Below are positions 19,090 through 25,739 of a stretch of DNA of 64,000 nucleotides, one piece after another. Position 1 is the first letter of the stretch, and every line of letters starts with the position of its first letter. The DNA is taken from the NCBI GenBank assembly GCA_022979955.1, contig GCA_022979955.1_3642.1. One strand, given 5' to 3'. This DNA is from a phage. Under the pieces are notes generated by a model. That model worked only from the letters and a program-made list of their open reading frames with translations. It was not told the origin of the DNA and searched no databases. The translations under genes were made by a program, and so were the position numbers.

Positions 19090-19116
19090 CCCTGCCCGAA
19101 AGGGTGGGGCTTTTTG
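19090..19116 (+). terminator. rho-independent terminator (repeated motif)
   Basis: CCCTGCCC-GAAA-GGGTGGGG hairpin (two G-U wobbles) followed by CTTTTTG; same hairpin recurs at 30172. Confidence 0.6.
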
Positions 19117-19133
19117 CATTAGGAGACAGCAAA

Positions 19134-19895
19134 TTGAAATTTATCTACAAAGAACACTACCACAAAGGTGTTGTGTGGAGCCTATTTGACGGATCTGGTG
19201 GTGCAGTCATTGACTGGGCAAAAGCTGGATATCTGTGCCTGTGCTTTAACGCAGAAGGTGCTGACCACGGCAGTTATGCAGAGGTGATCACCGATCATCC
19301 AAATATTCACTATGTAGATTATTGGATTGATCCATGGTTCCCTCAGGAAACTTTCTGCATGTACCCAGCTCCGGACTTTGTTCTTGCATTTCCTCCGTGC
19401 ACCCACTTAGCGGTGTCAGGTGCTGCACACTTTAAGAAGAAGCTGGCTAAGGACCCGTTGATCCAGATTAATGCTGTAAAGGATGCTCGGGTTGCAGAAG
19501 AGTTGGGAGAGATTTACGATTGCCCGTGGCATGTAGAGAATCCTGTGGGTGTTATGTCCACACTGTGGCGCAAACCTGATTACCGTTTTCACCCTTCTGA
19601 CTATGGCGGGTATTTACCGGAGGATGATGTAAACCCCTGGTTTCCTGAATTTATAGCTCCACGTGATGCCTATCCAAAAATAACTTGCGGCTGGATAGGT
19701 AATGGATTTATAATCCCGGCCACAAAACCTGTCCCGCAAATAGTTGACGCGGTTAGCGGGTATTCCATGCAACACGCCAAGCTGGGTGGAAAGAGTGCAA
19801 GAACGAAGATGATCCGAAGCCTCACACCACGTGGCTGGGCAAAAGCCGTATTCTTAGCAAACGAGCCTGCAGTAAGGAGAAGGGCAAATGGTTGA
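19134..19895 (+). CDS. C5-cytosine methyltransferase-like protein (short, PCT variant)
   Basis: TTG start 7 nt after AGGAGA; motif I FDGSGG, motif IV PPCT (in place of PCQ), motif VI-like HVENPVG. Confidence 0.55.
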   Translation: MKFIYKEHYHKGVVWSLFDGSGGAVIDWAKAGYLCLCFNAEGADHGSYAEVITDHPNIHYVDYWIDPWFPQETFCMYPAPDFVLAFPPCTHLAVSGAAHFKKKLAKDPLIQINAVKDARVAEELGEIYDCPWHVENPVGVMSTLWRKPDYRFHPSDYGGYLPEDDVNPWFPEFIAPRDAYPKITCGWIGNGFIIPATKPVPQIVDAVSGYSMQHAKLGGKSARTKMIRSLTPRGWAKAVFLANEPAVRRRANG

Positions 19896-20559
19896 CTGGA
19901 GCAAGTATTTCACCTATAGCGACGGCAAACTGTTCTGGGCGTATACCGCAAAAGCCGGAAGGGGTAGGATCATACATTACGCAGGTGAGGAGGCCACAGG
20001 CACAGATAAAGATGGCTATAGAGTAATAAATGTGTCAGGTGTTGGAAGTGTTCGTAGGCACAGAATAATTTGGGAGATGCATTACGGAGAGATACCTGAA
20101 GGTCTTGTTGTTCGGCACAAGAACGACATAGCAGGGGACGACAGGATAGAGAACCTAATCCTGGGGACACAAGGTGATAATGCACGAGACATGATCTACA
20201 GTGACAAGCTAAACATTAACAATACCTCAGGGTATCGTGGCGTGCGCTATCATAGAGGTATAAAAAGATGGACTGCATCTGCTGGAGACATATACTTAGG
20301 GTGTTTTAAGACAAAAGAGGATGCAATTGCATGCAGAAAGTTATGGGAGAAAGGAAAATTCGTCCCGCAAGAATTAGATGTTAGAAACACTAGCGGTGTA
20401 ACAGGGGTGTTCTATGTGCCGAGCTCTGGAAGGTGGAGAGTCCGAGTGCAAAGCGGCAAAAAGAGAAAGAGCTATGGCACTTACAACACTTTAGAAGAAG
20501 CAAAAGCTGTAAGGGATAAAGTGATGAAAGAGATTGAGGAGTTTAAAGATGGGGAATAA
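19888..20559 (+). CDS. HNH homing endonuclease with AP2 DNA-binding domains
   Basis: HNH region RRHRIIWEMHYG...VRHKNDIAGDDRIENL; two AP2-like repeats (SGYRGVRYH...GCFKTKEDA and SGVTGVFYV...YNTLEEA). Confidence 0.75.
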   Translation: MVDWSKYFTYSDGKLFWAYTAKAGRGRIIHYAGEEATGTDKDGYRVINVSGVGSVRRHRIIWEMHYGEIPEGLVVRHKNDIAGDDRIENLILGTQGDNARDMIYSDKLNINNTSGYRGVRYHRGIKRWTASAGDIYLGCFKTKEDAIACRKLWEKGKFVPQELDVRNTSGVTGVFYVPSSGRWRVRVQSGKKRKSYGTYNTLEEAKAVRDKVMKEIEEFKDGE

Positions 20560-22627
20560 GTTTATACCCTCTGCATATAGCCGCTATGGAGAACCTAACC
20601 CAGTTGCAACAAGATACAAAAGCGGAGGTAGTATGAAACGAGACTATCGCGATGAAAAAGAGGTTGAAACTGTAGAGACCGTTTTAGAAAATACTAAAAT
20701 TGTCCCTGTCCCACAACAAAATATCGGTCTGATGGCTGCACAATATTTTGGTGTGCGATCAGCATTGTCCCAAGAGGACGGTGTGACAGTAACTGCAACA
20801 TATTTCCCATATTACGACCGCTACGGAAATCTATCTGGCTTTAAAAAGCGTGATTGGTCTAAGCCAAAAGAGCAGAAAGGGCACTGGTCTGTAGTGGGCA
20901 TAGTAAAGGCTAACTCCCAGATGTTTGGTCAAAAGCTGTGTGCATCTTCCAACAACCGTAAGCAGATTAATGTTTGTGAGGGAGAAGGTGATGTTATTGC
21001 AGCATGGCAGGCTGCATATCAAATACAAGTAAAAGGGATTCTCACCAACGCTAAAGCCCCGGCAAAGGTGAAACAGTGGGCTAAAGAGGTCCAGGACGGG
21101 ATCGATGCAGTTATCAACGGGGGTGATTTGGCAGGAAAACCCTGCCTGCCTTTTGTTGGAATTAACTGTGGATGTGCAAACGCAGTAGATACTTTTGCAA
21201 ACAATGAGAAATTTATCCGTAGCTACGGAACAGTGGTCCTTGCAATGGACAACGATGCGGCTAACGAGGTAGAGAAGCAAAAACACGTTATAAAAGGTGT
21301 TGAAGCCACACATAATATTGCAGCATTTTTGATGGCTGACAACGTTTACCACGTGGAATATCCTGGCGAGGTAAACGACCCTGATGGTGTAAAAGATATC
21401 CGTGACATGCTGAAGGCTAAAAAGCTGGAAGATATTGTAAACATGTTCCGGCATCCTGTTAAGTATGTGCCTGATGCTGTGTCGGATTTAGAAGACTTCT
21501 CTATCGAATCTTTGCGGAAAAAGACTTCCAACGGGGTAGATATCAGCGCAGAGTTTCCAAAACTGCAAAAAATGCTAAAAGGCTTGCACAAAGGGACACT
21601 CGTAATGCTTACAGGTCCATCAGGAGGTGGTAAAACAACTGTAGCCAAAAAACTGGAACACTGTATTGCAAGATACCTAATGGACCCGACATGTCCAAAG
21701 GCCGATGACTACGAAGAGGATGATCGTCTATGCATGATTCATCTTGAGGAGGACCCAGAGGAAGCAATTAACTCCTTGTATGCAAACCAGTTAGGGTTTG
21801 ATGTTAAAGAGTTTGTTGAAGATCCTAGCCAGTTTTTAACTGATCAAGAACATGCAGAGATTCACCAATCATGGGCAAAAGCTGGAAAAATCAAAGTGTT
21901 CAAACATTTCGGGTCTATTCCAGTGGACGAGTTGATTACCAAGCTTAAGCAAATGGTCTGCCTGTACCATTGTCGCTATATTGTGCTGGATCACCTGTCT
22001 ATGGTAATTTCAGGGCTTAATGTTAAAGATGAGCGAAAAGAACTGGACATGGCTATGACTCAGCTGGCTGCGTTTTGTAAGCAGTTTAACGTGTTTATCT
22101 TGGTGATCGCTCACCTCAAACGTACAGAGATTGTGCCTCCTAAGGACAAGGATGGTAACCCATTACCTTTCTGGTATCCTGTGCGAAAAGAGAATTTGCG
22201 AGGATCGGCTGGGCTTGAACAGTTGAGTTGGGTAGTCATAGGTGTCGAGGCCGAAGAAATGGTGGATCGTTCTCGTGGACGTGTCCGTCTGGTAGGTCTT
22301 AAAAACCGTCCAGCAAAAACTCTAGGTATTGCTGACACTTTGGTTATGGACCCGCACACAGGTAAGTTCCATGATGCCAGTAATTGGTACTGGGACAAAG
22401 AAATGCAAATGTTTACAGACGGAGAAGGTGGGGAGGTTGTTTGGAGACCTCAGGCTATGTTTGAGGATCAGGAGCATGCAGTTGTAGAAACACCTATGGG
22501 CAAGGTTGTGGCTGATAAGGTTGTAACTCCTACTGTTAAGCCTGTTGACACGCAGGAAGACCTCCAGTACGATGATCCATCCTCTGACCCGGTCCCTGGT
22601 TTTGAGGATGATGAAACGCCTTTTTAA
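20549..22627 (+). CDS. DNA primase-helicase (TOPRIM + DnaB-like)
   Basis: ATG 7 nt after GAGGAG; TOPRIM motifs CEGEGD and MDNDAA in N-terminal half; helicase Walker A GPSGGGKT and Walker B-like VLDHLS in C-terminal half. Confidence 0.8.
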   Translation: MGNKFIPSAYSRYGEPNPVATRYKSGGSMKRDYRDEKEVETVETVLENTKIVPVPQQNIGLMAAQYFGVRSALSQEDGVTVTATYFPYYDRYGNLSGFKKRDWSKPKEQKGHWSVVGIVKANSQMFGQKLCASSNNRKQINVCEGEGDVIAAWQAAYQIQVKGILTNAKAPAKVKQWAKEVQDGIDAVINGGDLAGKPCLPFVGINCGCANAVDTFANNEKFIRSYGTVVLAMDNDAANEVEKQKHVIKGVEATHNIAAFLMADNVYHVEYPGEVNDPDGVKDIRDMLKAKKLEDIVNMFRHPVKYVPDAVSDLEDFSIESLRKKTSNGVDISAEFPKLQKMLKGLHKGTLVMLTGPSGGGKTTVAKKLEHCIARYLMDPTCPKADDYEEDDRLCMIHLEEDPEEAINSLYANQLGFDVKEFVEDPSQFLTDQEHAEIHQSWAKAGKIKVFKHFGSIPVDELITKLKQMVCLYHCRYIVLDHLSMVISGLNVKDERKELDMAMTQLAAFCKQFNVFILVIAHLKRTEIVPPKDKDGNPLPFWYPVRKENLRGSAGLEQLSWVVIGVEAEEMVDRSRGRVRLVGLKNRPAKTLGIADTLVMDPHTGKFHDASNWYWDKEMQMFTDGEGGEVVWRPQAMFEDQEHAVVETPMGKVVADKVVTPTVKPVDTQEDLQYDDPSSDPVPGFEDDETPF

Positions 22628-22685: not shown

Positions 22686-25049
22686 ATGAGTATGTGGTCT
22701 TTCGATTTTGAGTCATCCGGTTTGCTGGAAGACCCAGATCTTTATTATCACTGCGGTCTGTTTAAAGAGCTGAATAAGAACCGTTTTATGCTGTTCCTTC
22801 CTCTAAATGACCGCACACACTACTCCGAGGAGGATATAGAAAAGGCTAAGAACTTCATTCTGGCAAAGAAAACTCTTTATAAAGATTTTGAAGTTCGCAT
22901 AGCAGATTTTTCGGAGTTGGAAGGTTGGCTTACAGGCAATTCTGACTGGTCACCAACAGCTTTGAACTGCCATAACTGCTACAGTTATGACTTTATGCTG
23001 ATGGAAAGATTATCCGGTATTCATTTTGACATGTTCCGTGATCCTAAATGCATGGGGACTATCAACGACCACCAGGTTAACCTGTTTGATACGTTGGCGA
23101 TGAGTCGAATCTTGTGGCCTGATCGCCCTTTACCAAAAGGTTGTCCGGACTCTGTATTCAACCCGGTCACTAAGAAAATGCAGCCTGTTGGTCCTCACGG
23201 CCTTATGGCATGGGGCTATGCTCTTGGTAACCAGAAAGTTCAAATTGATGACTGGCGCGATCTTCCGTTATGGAAGTATGTGGATCGTGTATTTGAGGAC
23301 GTTATCATCCAGGAGCTGCTCTGGAAAGAACTGGTAGCGGAATCAAAAGGTGTATTCTACGGCAAGTCTGACATGCAGAACTTTATGTACGATCCTGCCA
23401 AAGAGAAGCCGAAAGGGTTCAAGAAGATCACCTGGAAGAACGCACTACGCCGAGGCATGCTGCAGCACTTCCTGATGGAGCTGCAGGCCCGTCAGGGTGT
23501 GTATTTTGACATAGATGGAGCTATTGCTTTACGTGACCGTTGTGATGCGTGGATGAAAGAAATAGCTGATCGTGTTGAACCACAACTACCTTTAAAAGAG
23601 CTGTCAATGTCTCAGCGGCCCAAGTTCCCTGAAAAGCCGTTTAACCAAGATGGGACAATCTCCAATAATGGTTGGAAATGGTTAAAAGATAAGCTTGGCT
23701 ATCCTGTAGACATGAGCGCTTTAGAGTTCAAAGCCCCGCCTAAGCGAGCATTTACCTCCACAGGAGATGTCAGTAAGATGGGGATAAAATGGTGTGAAGA
23801 GATGGGCTGCAAAGACCCTGATAAGATGGCTGATTTCTTGAGAGGCTATATTAAGGGCACTTCCACACCACAACCTTTACCTAAAGAGCTGATGGATCAG
23901 GCAATAAGTGATCTACAGCAGAAGCGAATGCCGGACTGCAAGATACCTATGAAAATCAGCAATCAGGACGACATTAAGCGATACCTGATCAGTGCTGGTT
24001 GGCTTCCGACAATGTGGAGAACTAAGGATGTAACTAAAGACAGCAAGAAGAAAGCTCTACCTGATGCAGATGTTGATGCACGAGTATATGCATATATGGA
24101 CGAGCTTTTAGAGTCAGAGTATTGTGACCTGATTATCAACTTCTGGAACAAAACTGATGCTAAGTTCCAGACAACCGTGCACAAGTTCCGAAGCTTTCCT
24201 AACTCCGAAAGGATTAAAAAGGAAGTATTCGGGAAAATACGTAGAAAAGCTAGGGCACTTATTACTTCTCCGCAACTGAAAGATACGTTTGGACACCTAT
24301 GCCCTAATCTTGAAAAATTGAACGGAGAGATGGCTAAAGATATCGTCTTGTGGTTATCATTGCGAAACCGCAGATCGGTCCTTGATCCAATCAAGGAGGA
24401 TAAGGTTGATACTGGTCTTCTTAATCACCCACGTTTGAAGATTGACCATAAGCTTCCTGCTAAAAGTTCTGGATTAACAAACACTTCCCGACAGAAACAC
24501 AGTATTTGTGCAAACATGCCTAAACCATCTCCTAAAGTGGTTATGGGTAAAGAGATGCGTAGTCTGTGGGGTGTTCCTCCAGGATACTTTGAGATCGGTA
24601 TTGACGGGTCCAACTTAGAGCAGCTTATCGGGGCTTGGGGTGCCTTTGAGTTCGACAACGGCCTGTATTACGATGTTGTAAGTAACGGAGACGCACACCA
24701 AAACAATGCTGAGGCATATACAAAAGTAGCAGGCAGAGAGGTGTCCCGTAACGACGGTAAACCTATCACGTATGGGGTTATGTACGGAGCACAAAAAGAT
24801 AAAGTTGCAGATATGCTGGACATCTCTCCAGAGTTGGGACAAAGGGTAATCGATGCGCTTTGGGATGCCAACCCTGGTCTTAAGGGCCGTAAAGAGGATC
24901 TGGAGAAATTCTGGGAAGCAACGGGTAAGAAGTTTATCTACTCTTTTGATGGTCATGCCATCTGGACCAGATCTAAACACTCTTTACTTAATGCATACCA
25001 ACAGAATGGTGGTGCATCGCTGTGTGACTTGGTTGGGATACTCATGCAC
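22686..25049 (+). CDS. DNA polymerase family A (T7/Pol I-like), exon 1
   Basis: N-terminal 3'-5' exo motif SFDFESSGL...HCG; motif A-like IDGSNLEQL; motif B RNDGKPITYGVMYGA; reading frame continues to a stop at 25115 inside the putative intron. Confidence 0.7.
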
Positions 25050-25385
25050 CACCAAATGGTGAAGCGTGGGTGGTACGATGAAGGTGTTCGCCGTATTATT
25101 TATTACCATAAATAACATTGTGGCTTCATAGAGTAATCTATGTCGAATAACCTCTTTAACTGCGGGAAGCCTAAACCTTATGGCAAGGTAATCCGCAACG
25201 AAGCGCTCAAAAGAGCGAACGCTCAGAGGCCATTCCGAAAGGAAGTAGACCAGCAAGTGCGGTCGAAATGGGAGGATTCCTGTGGTTGCTTATCATAGGA
25301 ATATGAGATGGTCCGATCCTACGTGAAAACGTATGGCTATGCACGTAATGGTGCGGGGTAGCTTAACGACCTACCTGAACTATTG
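25050..25385 (+). ncRNA. putative group I self-splicing intron, ORF-less
   Basis: 336-nt insert between in-frame polymerase segments; P-like AACUGCGGGAAG (25159-25170), Q-like AAUCCGCAAC (25190-25199), R-like GUAGACCA (25245-25252), S-like GAGAUGGUCC (25305-25314), GNRA-capped hairpin UUCC-GAAA-GGAA; ends in G at 25385; exact junctions uncertain. Confidence 0.5.
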
Positions 25386-25739
25386 GATGAGTACCAACTT
25401 CAAGTGCCTGACACGCCTAAGTATAAGACTGTGTACACCTTCGACACAATTGAAGAACTGGAAGCATTTAAGGCAGAACAGGAGGCCAAACTTCATGTGT
25501 TCGACGGTCATAAGTACAAAAAGGCACGCAAAGATGAGGACGGAAACGAAGTAGTTGACAGGGACGGAAACACGGTGTACGATCCTATCCTGAACGATGA
25601 CGGAAAGCTTGAGCTTATCTGGAGCCCTGTGGGTGAAATGGTGGTGCATTGCTTCTGGCAAGCTTCTAAAATGATGGGAGTCCCGTTCCAGATCACAGGT
25701 GAATACCTGTGTGGTCGTAATTGGGGTGATTGTCACTAA
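25386..25739 (+). CDS. DNA polymerase family A, exon 2 (C-terminal segment)
   Basis: Begins DEYQLQV, which joined to ...GILMH gives motif C LMHDEYQ; ends GRNWGDCH like the T7 DNA polymerase C-terminus as recalled; no SD upstream. Confidence 0.55.
   Translation, partial: DEYQLQVPDTPKYKTVYTFDTIEELEAFKAEQEAKLHVFDGHKYKKARKDEDGNEVVDRDGNTVYDPILNDDGKLELIWSPVGEMVVHCFWQASKMMGVPFQITGEYLCGRNWGDCH

Follow-up and report, generated by a model that had tools for sequence, protein, structure and literature searches.

The DNA polymerase gene of an rV5-like coliphage almost certainly carries a group I intron with an IA2-like architecture. The insert occupies positions 25110-25385 (+ strand, 276 nt) of the window, the 64,000-nt stretch of phage DNA that we analysed. 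It lies inside a family A polymerase gene, between the His and the Asp-Glu of catalytic motif C, and would be removed from the RNA by splicing. The phage is a Vequintavirus with 97-98% identity to rV5 and MaxTheCat. An earlier note on this DNA had proposed that an ORF-less group I intron splits the polymerase at motif C (HDE). That proposal is borne out by an Rfam match, intron-less alleles, covariation and the alignment of the spliced product with T7 polymerase. The Rfam model RF00028 matched 25100-25335 (+) with 64.7 bits (E 4e-14) over model positions 1-253 of 253; the gathering score of this family is 50 bits. Searching the 64-kb window with Rfam at E ≤ 1 returned no other RNA family and no further intron.

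We examined the coding sequence on both sides of the insert. As the earlier note had described, the polymerase reading frame that opens at 22686 stops at 25115 (TAA 25113-25115), the C-terminal end (...GRNWGDCH) is encoded in the same frame from 25386, and the 25 nt 5' of exon 2 contain no Shine-Dalgarno sequence. The Pfam DNA_pol_A match to exon 1 is weak and falls under the curated cut-off; exon 1 aligns with T7 polymerase through to VHDE. Ligating the exons gives a 925-codon polymerase ORF, and the spliced CDS of 2778 nt has the length of the intron-less JeffSchatz CDS. The spliced protein, ...RRIIYYH/DEYQLQV (slashes mark the exon junction), matches AWVHDEIQV of T7 polymerase (yyHDEyql against wvHDEiqv). 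The predicted spliced RNA or cDNA reads ...UAUUACCAU/GAUGAGUAC... at the junction and the predicted protein reads IIYYH-DEYQLQVPDTPK, with ...IIYYHDEYQLQVPDTPK as the junction-spanning peptide.

The boundaries of the insert were set by comparison with intron-less relatives. In sister phages such as JeffSchatz and Murica, ...TATTACCAT/GATGAGTACC... runs on with no break. The DNA of intron-less Vequintavirus relatives is contiguous as ...TATTACCAT/GATGAGTACCA..., a junction equally given as ...TTATTACCAT/GATGAGTACCA..., and the spliced junction region of the window is one uninterrupted piece in these genomes (up to 100% identity over 179 aa). Because the intron-less alleles are contiguous at the junction, the insert is exactly 25110-25385, and neither end shows sliding ambiguity against these relatives. 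The 5' exon ends in U25109. G25385 is the final intron nucleotide, and the length of the intron is divisible by three, both of which the earlier note had recognised; excision restores the reading frame. The stop at intron nt 4-6 is kept in 12 of 13 homologous introns. An intein was ruled out by this in-frame UAA, by the lack of coding potential and by the conservation of RNA structure instead. Table 1 gives the coordinates of the exons and of the ribozyme elements.

Table 1. Exons, splice-site features and ribozyme elements of the split polymerase gene, with positions in the window.
Feature	Position	Strand	Description
DNA polymerase exon 1	22686-25109	+	808 codons, C-terminal end ...RRIIYYH; from the ORF list; runs straight into exon 2 in intron-less JeffSchatz and Murica
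Final codon of exon 1	25107-25109	+	CAU, His of motif C
P1	25106-25123	+	exon CCAU and intron AA (25106-25111) with UUGUGG (25118-25123)
In-frame UAA	25113-25115	+	intron nt 4-6, P1 loop; would halt translation of unspliced RNA
Internal guide sequence	25116-25123	+	CAUUGUGG; Rfam alignment, MFE fold
P2	25127-25142	+	hairpin CAUAGA-GUAA-UCUAUG; 6/6 pairs compensatory, 100% paired
P3, 5' strand	25151-25156	+	CCUCUU, partner GGGAGG 25270-25275; 3/6 pairs compensatory, 100% paired
P4	25161-25197	+	UGCGGG 25161-25166 with UCCGCA 25192-25197; MFE fold
J4/5 and P5	25169-25172, 25186-25189	+	inside P4; J4/5 AA; P5 GCCU with AGGU
P6 and P6a	25199-25221	+	P6 CG with CG; P6a hairpin CGCUC-AAAA-GAGCG; alignment of homologues
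P7, 5' strand	25228-25232	+	GGCCA, partner UGGUC 25309-25313; pseudoknot with P3
P7.1	25233-25244	+	UUCC-GAAA-GGAA
GUA linker	25245-25247	+	GUAG invariant among homologues
P7.2	25248-25264	+	GACC...GGUC; 3 compensatory pairs
P8	25276-25302	+	hairpin AUUCCUG...UAGGAAU; 6/7 pairs compensatory
P7, 3' strand	25309-25313	+	UGGUC; J8/7 AUGAGA directly 5'
P9	25318-25336	+	GAAA loop; 5/7 pairs compensatory
P9.1	25340-25355	+	2/5 pairs compensatory
P9.2	25357-25375	+	4/5 pairs compensatory
Terminal guanosine (omega-G)	25385	+	G in 13/13 homologues; junction set by intron-less alleles
DNA polymerase exon 2	25386-25739	+	DEYQLQV...GRNWGDCH, 117 codons and stop
Asp-Glu codons of motif C	25386-25391	+	GAU GAG, start of exon 2

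The insert has the fold of a group I ribozyme. The MFE fold alone yields P1, P2, P3, P4, P5, P6a, P7.1, P7.2, P8, P9, P9.1 and P9.2 (z = -2.59). The splice-site wobble pair of P1 is U25109·G25120, which supplies the U·G expected at the end of the 5' exon. GNRA-capped hairpins, one of which the earlier note had reported, are present as P2 (GUAA), P7.1 and P9 (both GAAA). The first four nucleotides of exon 2, GAUG, could form P10 with CAUU at 25116-25119, a helix of just 4 bp that some homologues form less strongly. The element P7.1-GUA-P7.2 between P7 and the 3' strand of P3 is a hallmark of subgroup IA2 (PMC3428280). All of its parts are present in the window intron, and the architecture appears IA2-like on this basis. 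The P7 helix itself differs from that in the earlier note, which had paired an R element GACCA (25248-25252) with UGGUC. GACC is instead the 5' strand of P7.2, where it pairs with GGUC at 25261-25264 with compensatory changes, and the true P7 is formed by GGCCA, with C25230-G25311 among its pairs. This P7 is 100% paired in 13 sequences and includes one compensatory pair (U-A to C-G).

We tested the fold against 13 homologous introns, all of which sit at the identical ...YH/DE... site of the polymerase. Their hosts belong to Vequintavirus, Certrevirus, Seunavirus and Avunavirus, and include three unclassified Vibrio phages and one Pseudomonas Pakpunavirus. Among 49 proposed pairs in nine helices (P2, P3, P6, P7, P7.2, P8, P9, P9.1 and P9.2), 98.7% of cells pair, compared with 34-42% in slid-alignment controls. 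Compensatory changes on both sides occur in 32 of the 49 pairs, a number reached by none of 500 shuffles. Compensatory change has kept the core from P3 to P9, including the P3/P7 pseudoknot. P5, distal P6 and P7.1 were omitted from the test; the MAFFT alignment is unreliable there, and P5 and P7.1 are too variable. KP12 is misaligned in the omitted regions and is the source of the sole unpaired P6 cell. P4, scored apart by pattern extraction, covaries at its fourth pair (G-C to U-A), and the CG/CG of P6 becomes GA/UC in CB7 and CC/GG in SPA01. At the 5' splice site, the exon sequence ACCAU and the guide sequence GUGGC are unchanged in 13/13 homologues, and the intron-proximal part of the guide is variable.

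We compared the intron to those of other phages. Self-splicing group IA2 introns of phages reside in DNA-metabolism genes; a peripheral loop often houses an HNH or GIY-YIG gene, and related phages differ in whether they have the intron (PMC3428280, PMC11878797). For the polymerase intron of Pectobacterium phage CB7, RT-PCR combined with Sanger sequencing demonstrated splicing in infected cells (Buttimer et al. 2020, PMC7344957). This intron surrounds the HNH gene CB7_50, between CB7_51 and CB7_49, and shares with the window the site (IIYYH/DEYQLEV), the guide sequence, P3, P4, P7, P7.2 and P9. The CB7 intron measures 687 nt with its HNH ORF, whereas the window intron is ORF-less at 276 nt. CB7, a Certrevirus, also has a second polymerase intron further upstream, unlike the window. 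The T7-like phages ΦI and W31 (AY769989, AY769990) contain IA2 polymerase introns at site 881 in E. coli Pol I numbering (PMC3428280). Likened by site and description, they have a family A (T7-type) polymerase and the IA2 architecture in common with the window. We take residue 881 of Pol I to be the HDE-motif His; the site would then coincide with that of the window intron. The ΦI and W31 introns hold an HNH ORF in P6a, as FV3-type relatives do, whereas the window copy is ORF-less, and their hosts are podoviruses whereas the window phage is a myovirus. The introns of SPO1, SP82 and Bastille, phages unrelated to the window phage, occupy a different position (Pol I site 674; PMC3428280), and blastn found no similarity between introns of this type and the window intron past short core matches.

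The fold and the exon sequences suggest how the polymerase would be assembled. The whole gene would be transcribed as one pre-mRNA. The guide sequence would pair with the CCAU at the end of exon 1, creating the U·G wobble of P1, and an exogenous guanosine bound in P7 would attack after U25109. The guide would next position the GAUG of exon 2 through P10, and the free 3'-OH of exon 1 would attack after G25385, ligating the exons into the full-length ORF. On unspliced RNA, ribosomes would halt at the UAA and release an 809-aa protein without the two metal-binding carboxylates of motif C. Since that product would lack both carboxylates, splicing is probably required for polymerase activity. For the window phage, we infer this chemistry and its necessity from what is known of group I introns, from the RT-PCR results in CB7 and from the presence of the identical intron in an essential gene of isolated phages.

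The Aeh1 NrdA, split by mobE, is reportedly made as two polypeptides that assemble after translation. We considered a similar fate for the window polymerase, in which the insert stays in the RNA and fragments of 809 aa and ~117 aa assemble post-translationally. A TTG at 25383 opens an ORF over exon 2, RefSeq annotates two 'DNA polymerase' CDSs, and one HNH-associated insert in CB7, in the NAMPT gene, did stay in the RNA (PMC7344957). However, no Shine-Dalgarno sequence was found upstream of 25383, and the break would sever His from Asp-Glu within a single catalytic motif. The insert also retains an intact ribozyme, with all tested pairs formed and compensatory changes extending across genera, a structure that would be pointless if it never folded and spliced, and the homologous CB7 intron splices. 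We therefore consider a two-polypeptide polymerase very unlikely and favor a spliced group I intron.

Homing endonuclease genes are found in several homologues of the window intron. FV3, CR9, SSE121, A73, CB7 and SPA01 each have an ORF within the intron, annotated as an HNH endonuclease in four of them. The ORF sits in P6a in FV3, CR9, SSE121, A73 and SPA01, and in CB7 it starts further upstream, before the 3' strand of P4. The window intron does not encode a homing endonuclease. In agreement with the earlier note, we found no conserved ORF in the insert; its only ORF encodes 52 aa (25140-25298) and has no Pfam match. This ORF (rV5 gp222) was rejected as a gene, as its start codon is part of the 3' strand of P2, where other variants read ACG instead of ATG. 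The earlier note had also pointed to a free-standing HNH-AP2 endonuclease gene upstream. An HNH_3 and AP2 gene is indeed present at 19888-20559, but it shows no association with the 276-nt intron. We found the gene in 5 phage records only, none of which contains a full-length match to the 276-nt intron, and at least 4 of the 5 (HeinrichReichert, Phage 203, Phage 206 and EmilHeitz) have the HNH-containing intron. AlexBoehm is a further phage with an HNH intron. Collaborative homing between the upstream gene and the window intron was rejected because the two do not co-occur in these records.

Close relatives of the window phage are polymorphic for the intron at this one site. Three states of the polymerase gene occur: intron-less, interrupted by the ORF-less 276-nt form, and interrupted by an 842-nt form whose P6a houses an HNH gene. 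In a sample of 60 evenly spaced records out of 132 that matched, 25 are intron-less, 11 have the 276-nt form, ~15 have the 842-nt HNH form and 2 have a 328-nt form. The 276-nt intron is found in at least 24 phage records at ≥95% identity, 23 of these at ≥99%. It matches the FV3/JEP1-type intron at 100% identity over the 17 nt at its 5' end and the 48 nt at its 3' end. The central part, from P2 to P8, is merely 20-78% identical to the co-circulating HNH intron. P9 is of the Seunavirus/Certrevirus type, and P2 is nearest to the Vibrio-phage type.

The absence of the HNH ORF that relatives hold in P6a could mean that the window intron is a decaying, splicing-impaired relic of an HNH-containing intron, tolerated at a cost after loss of the endonuclease gene. 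KP12 has a 95-nt ORF-less extension of P6 that resembles a deletion remnant. The window P6a, by contrast, is a tight 5-bp hairpin with an AAAA loop and no ORF remnant, all core helices of the intron are perfectly paired, and an identical sequence recurs in at least 23 phage records. The low identity of the central part to the HNH intron indicates a separate lineage rather than a recent deletion derivative. The chance that the intron is an impaired relic is accordingly slim. The window intron is an endonuclease-less member of a mobile family. It presumably arrived by vertical descent, or else through recombination or co-conversion, and since it splits the target site it would in addition shield the polymerase gene against the larger intron's HNH enzyme.

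These patterns suggest a broader model that we offer tentatively and consider possible but unlikely. In this model, the 276-nt ORF-less form would represent a ribozyme lineage of its own, recombinant in origin and not a decayed copy of the HNH intron, in one family located at Pol I 881/882 across Vequintavirinae, Vibrio phages, Pakpunavirus and possibly ΦI/W31. The ORF-less form would persist because, in mixed infections, it immunises the polymerase gene to the HNH endonuclease that the larger intron encodes. If true, this would be a system of intron-versus-intron competition, testable in the BASEL phages.

The earlier note had placed the 5' junction at 25049/25050, joining GILMH to DEYQLQV in a 336-nt intron (25050-25385) whose 5' exon would end in a non-canonical C. 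That version likewise produces an H-D-E tripeptide and keeps the frame, but it is refuted by the intron-less alleles, in which the 60 nt at 25050-25109 stay coding, and by the T7 polymerase alignment, which includes the 20 genuine residues (HQMVKRGWYDEGVRRIIYYH) it would remove; there is practically no chance that it is correct. The Rfam model and the MFE fold also put P1 and its U·G pair at the downstream site, and ...CAUGCAC at 25043-25049 has no guide sequence to pair with. Comparison with intron-less relatives thus confirms the insert and shifts its left edge 60 nt downstream, to 25109/25110; the unusual C was an artefact of the wrong junction. A junction guessed from a recreated motif may lie tens of bases from the true site; sister genomes that lack the intron resolve the question.

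The same intron had already been annotated in a related phage. MaxTheCat (MZ501094), a Vequintavirus of the BASEL collection, has a 276-nt insert that is 100% identical and at the same position. The identical intron is also present in rV5. The MaxTheCat annotation joins the polymerase CDS from two pieces, and the span of 3054 nt minus 276 nt leaves 2778 nt, the intron-less CDS length. The BASEL authors set intron boundaries via comparative genomics (Maffei et al. 2021, PMC8594841); their record is an annotation alone, without ribozyme structure, subgroup or splicing experiment. The rV5 RefSeq record and the rV5 genome paper list separate ORFs with a polymerase of 775 aa, which reflects annotation practice rather than contrary data. 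We regard the window intron as real, probably functional and of an ordinary phage kind; it fits the textbook homing-intron pattern and introduces no new principle. Our analysis supplies a well-supported secondary structure and a wide host range, with phages of E. coli, Salmonella, Klebsiella, Pectobacterium, Cronobacter, Vibrio and Pseudomonas, for an intron family that is always at the His/Asp-Glu boundary of motif C. Its main use is in annotation. Two polymerase genes and spurious intron proteins (rV5 gp222 and gp221) still appear in the older records of rV5 and FV3, as in many further Vequintavirus entries, where the gene should read as a single enzyme of 925 aa whose motif C is intact.

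The window is 97-98% identical to rV5-like coliphages of the genus Vequintavirus (MaxTheCat, RudolfGeigy, navn and rV5) over 2.5 kb around the polymerase insert. In this locus a cytosine-methyltransferase-like ORF is followed by an HNH-AP2 endonuclease gene, a primase/helicase gene and the family A DNA polymerase gene. The polymerase frame starts at 22686; as the earlier note had described, it is broken by a stop (TAA, 25113-25115), and the C-terminal end (DEYQLQV...GRNWGDCH, 117 codons) resumes in the same frame at 25386.

We located the insert by comparison with intron-less alleles. A conceptual junction protein in which 25109 is joined to 25386 served as tblastn query and is encoded without a break in many Vequintavirus genomes, including JeffSchatz and pangalan (100% identity over 179 aa) and Murica and CarlMeissner (99.4%, likewise over 179 aa). 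In DNA alignments, ...TATTTATTACCAT|GATGAGTACCAACTTCAAG... is contiguous in JeffSchatz and Murica, and the window carries 276 additional bases between CAT and GAT. The boundaries cannot slide because the bases at each end are different (left, T/G; right, A/G). By these alignments, the intron is placed at 25110-25385 (276 nt). A 336-nt insert at 25050-25385 had been proposed; its 3' junction stands, but the intron-less alleles show that its 5' junction lies 60 nt too far upstream. The corresponding GILMH|DE join would remove 20 residues (HQMVKRGWYDEGVRRIIYYH) that are present in intron-less relatives and can be aligned to T7 DNA polymerase (spliced query ...wydegvrriiyyHDEyql, T7 ...w-dgdfaymawvHDEiqv), and we consider a 336-nt intron very improbable. 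At the correct junction the 5' exon ends in U25109, and the apparent oddity of an exon ending in C vanishes. The spliced CDS of 2778 nt (925 codons plus stop) has the length of the intron-less JeffSchatz gene.

An Rfam scan matched the group I model RF00028 to 25100-25335 (+) over the full model length (64.7 bits; gathering score 50; E = 4e-14), and no other RNA family matched anywhere in the 64-kb window, even at E <= 1. The group I feature is therefore real and far above chance, and its kind, a group I intron in the polymerase gene at motif C (His-Asp-Glu, HDE), had been correctly named. The minimum free energy (MFE) fold (z = -2.59) independently gives P1, P2, P3, P4, P5, P6a, P7.1, P7.2, P8, P9, P9.1 and P9.2; the P3/P7 pseudoknot is beyond the reach of plain MFE folding. 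The helix pair P7.1 and P7.2, linked by G-U-A, is described as the hallmark of subgroup IA2 (PMC3428280). The S element and GNRA hairpin recognized earlier fit the structure, but the R element (GACCA, 25248-25252), assigned to P7, is really the 5' strand of P7.2.

Features of the polymerase intron and its surroundings. Positions are those of the window unless an extracted piece (L number) is named; all anatomy coordinates were checked against the window sequence.
Feature	Position	Detail
Dcm-like methyltransferase ORF	19104-19895	
HNH-AP2 endonuclease gene	19888-20559 (+)	Pfam HNH_3 2e-17, AP2 2e-10
Primase/helicase gene	20534-22627	
P1	25106-25111 with 25118-25123	exon CCAU + intron AA with UUGUGG; splice-site pair U25109·G25120
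Guide sequence	25116-25123	CAUUGUGG
P10 (possible)		CAUU, 5' half of guide, can pair with GAUG at exon 2 start
In-frame stop UAA	intron nt 4-6	P1 loop; same position in 12/13 homologues
P2	25127-25142	GUAA loop
P3	25151-25156 with 25270-25275	
P4	25161-25166 with 25192-25197	
P5	25169-25172 with 25186-25189	
P6 + P6a	25199-25221	
P7	25228-25232 with 25309-25313	GGCCA with UGGUC
P7.1	25233-25244	UUCC-GAAA-GGAA
GUA linker	25245-25247	
P7.2	25248-25264	
P8	25276-25302	
P9	25318-25336	
P9.1	25340-25355	
P9.2	25357-25375	
Terminal G of intron	25385	
rV5 gp222 / gp221 / gp220 entry	L001 3101-3259, 3294-3554, 3365-3700	window 25140-25298, 25333-25554
Second upstream insert, CB7	L007 1458-2170	
Second upstream insert, SSE121	L010 about 1-540	
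Second upstream insert, KP12	L013 343-1038	
Second upstream insert, 24-2-1	L009 437-1155	

An intron-only blastn search found relatives in 118 phage records. All 13 versions that we extracted interrupt motif C between its His codon and its Asp-Glu codons, and they share conserved exon ACCAU and guide sequences. Their lengths are 276 nt (window, rV5, MaxTheCat), 328 nt (JEP1), 842 nt (FV3), 687 nt (CB7), 772 nt (CR9 and A73), 771 nt (SSE121), 343 nt (KP12), 317 nt (E. coli phage 24-2-1, Avunavirus), 253-254 nt (Vibrio phages K412, 10AMN and 424E50-1) and 792 nt (Pseudomonas Pakpunavirus SPA01). The added length in FV3, CR9, SSE121, A73 and SPA01 is an ORF in the P6a loop, annotated as an HNH endonuclease in the first three, and different sequences flanking the ORF re-form the P6a stem in all five. 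The HNH ORF of CB7 starts further upstream, before the P4 3' strand, and extends through P6. In KP12, intron nt 96-190 (L013) form a 95-nt ORF-less P6 extension whose closing stem is CUUGUC with GACAAG; the extension may be what is left of an endonuclease gene after its deletion.

Covariation was tested on the aligned cores of the 13 versions with ORFs removed. Of 622 cells, 98.7% form standard pairs in the proposed structure, and two-sided changes are seen at 32 of the 49 pairs, a result reached by 0/500 shuffles; controls in which the partner was shifted by 1-3 columns were 34-42% paired. Every helix tested, the pseudoknot helices P3 and P7 among them, has at least one compensatory pair, and P4 switches from G-C to U-A across homologues. 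This covariation is strong evidence that the ribozyme has been under selection, and a splicing-impaired relic has very little probability.

With high confidence, the best explanation is that the polymerase pre-mRNA undergoes ordinary group I self-splicing. The boundaries, fold, covariation and restored ORF are direct results of the present analysis. By analogy with the group I family, guanosine would attack after U25109 and the exons would be ligated after G25385, restoring ...IIYYH-DEYQLQV.... Unspliced RNA would encode a protein of 809 aa that stops one codon past the His, without the catalytic Asp and Glu; therefore, splicing must be required for replication. For the CB7 homologue (around CB7_50, between CB7_51 and CB7_49), RT-PCR and Sanger sequencing showed splicing in infected cells (PMC7344957). 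We checked by sequence that the CB7 intron is homologous and occupies the same insertion site, and its splicing supports the same chemistry as likely in the window. The isolation of phages with an identical intron in an essential polymerase gene is a further argument for splicing. Synthesis of the polymerase as two polypeptides without splicing is most improbable; RefSeq rV5 (NC_011041) does list two polymerase pieces, together with two spurious ORFs.

The window intron belongs to a kind of phage group I intron that is known and has already been annotated. In MaxTheCat the identical intron is annotated with a two-piece joined polymerase CDS. The rV5 "hypothetical proteins" gp222 and gp221, which lie within or overlap the intron, and the separate "DNA polymerase" gp220, with its arbitrary internal start, are annotation artefacts of an unrecognized intron. 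Residue 881 of E. coli Pol I is the His of HDE, and on that numbering the FV3-type relatives would share both site and architecture with introns of the T7-like phages ΦI and W31. These two phages are reported to have, at Pol I site 881, self-splicing introns of subgroup IA2 whose HNH ORF lies in P6a (Bonocora & Shub 2004, as cited in PMC3428280). The only introns mentioned in the rV5 genome paper are those of the terminase, and the polymerase is given there as 775 aa (PMC3606486), which is exon 1 only, from a later start. The BASEL paper used comparative genomics to set intron boundaries (PMC8594841). Recognizing the intron corrects a widespread mis-annotation of the Vequintavirus polymerase.

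We sampled 60 evenly spaced records from the 132 that match the junction region. The 276-nt form was present in 11, the 842-nt HNH form in about 15 and the 328-nt ORF-less form in 2, and 25 were precisely intron-less. This mix is a classic presence/absence polymorphism of a mobile intron and offers a convenient system to study competition between intron variants. Compared with the FV3/JEP1 type, the window intron is 100% identical over its first 17 nt (25110-25126) and last 48 nt (25338-25385) and only 20-78% identical in P2-P8. Because of this pattern, it is a distinct, probably recombinant lineage and not the outcome of a recent loss of the HNH gene. Identical ends around a divergent centre suggest recombination or co-conversion between intron lineages at one insertion site.

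The free-standing HNH-AP2 endonuclease gene noticed upstream of the polymerase is real by Pfam and overlaps the genes on either side by a few codons. By megablast it is present in just five other phage records (92.6-97.5% identity): HeinrichReichert, EmilHeitz, Phage 203, Phage 206 and an ECO121 fragment. Of the five, at least four have an HNH-containing intron, and none is among the full-length matches to the 276-nt intron, so the suggested link between this endonuclease and the polymerase intron is unsupported. The simplest reading is a free-standing homing endonuclease with a locus of its own, flanked by the methyltransferase and primase/helicase genes. It looks like a recent acquisition unrelated to the intron.

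In several relatives the polymerase gene is interrupted a second time, roughly 350 nt upstream, by an insert with an ORF (an HNH endonuclease by annotation in CB7 and SSE121) and a group I-like GAUAUAGUC element directly before the following exon. Such an insert is absent from the equivalent position in the window, where exon 1 is a single uninterrupted ORF. About 16 unannotated GenBank records (MG065635-MG065690) named "Campylobacter phage ..." with host C. jejuni match E. coli rV5-like phages at 97-98% identity in the polymerase region, and their host label looks doubtful. The "DNA polymerase" CDS of JEP1 (MT740314, 69106-72504) is annotated as 3399 nt and begins 969 nt upstream of the equivalent of the window start codon, inside the window's primase/helicase region; either the genes are fused in JEP1 or the annotation is wrong.
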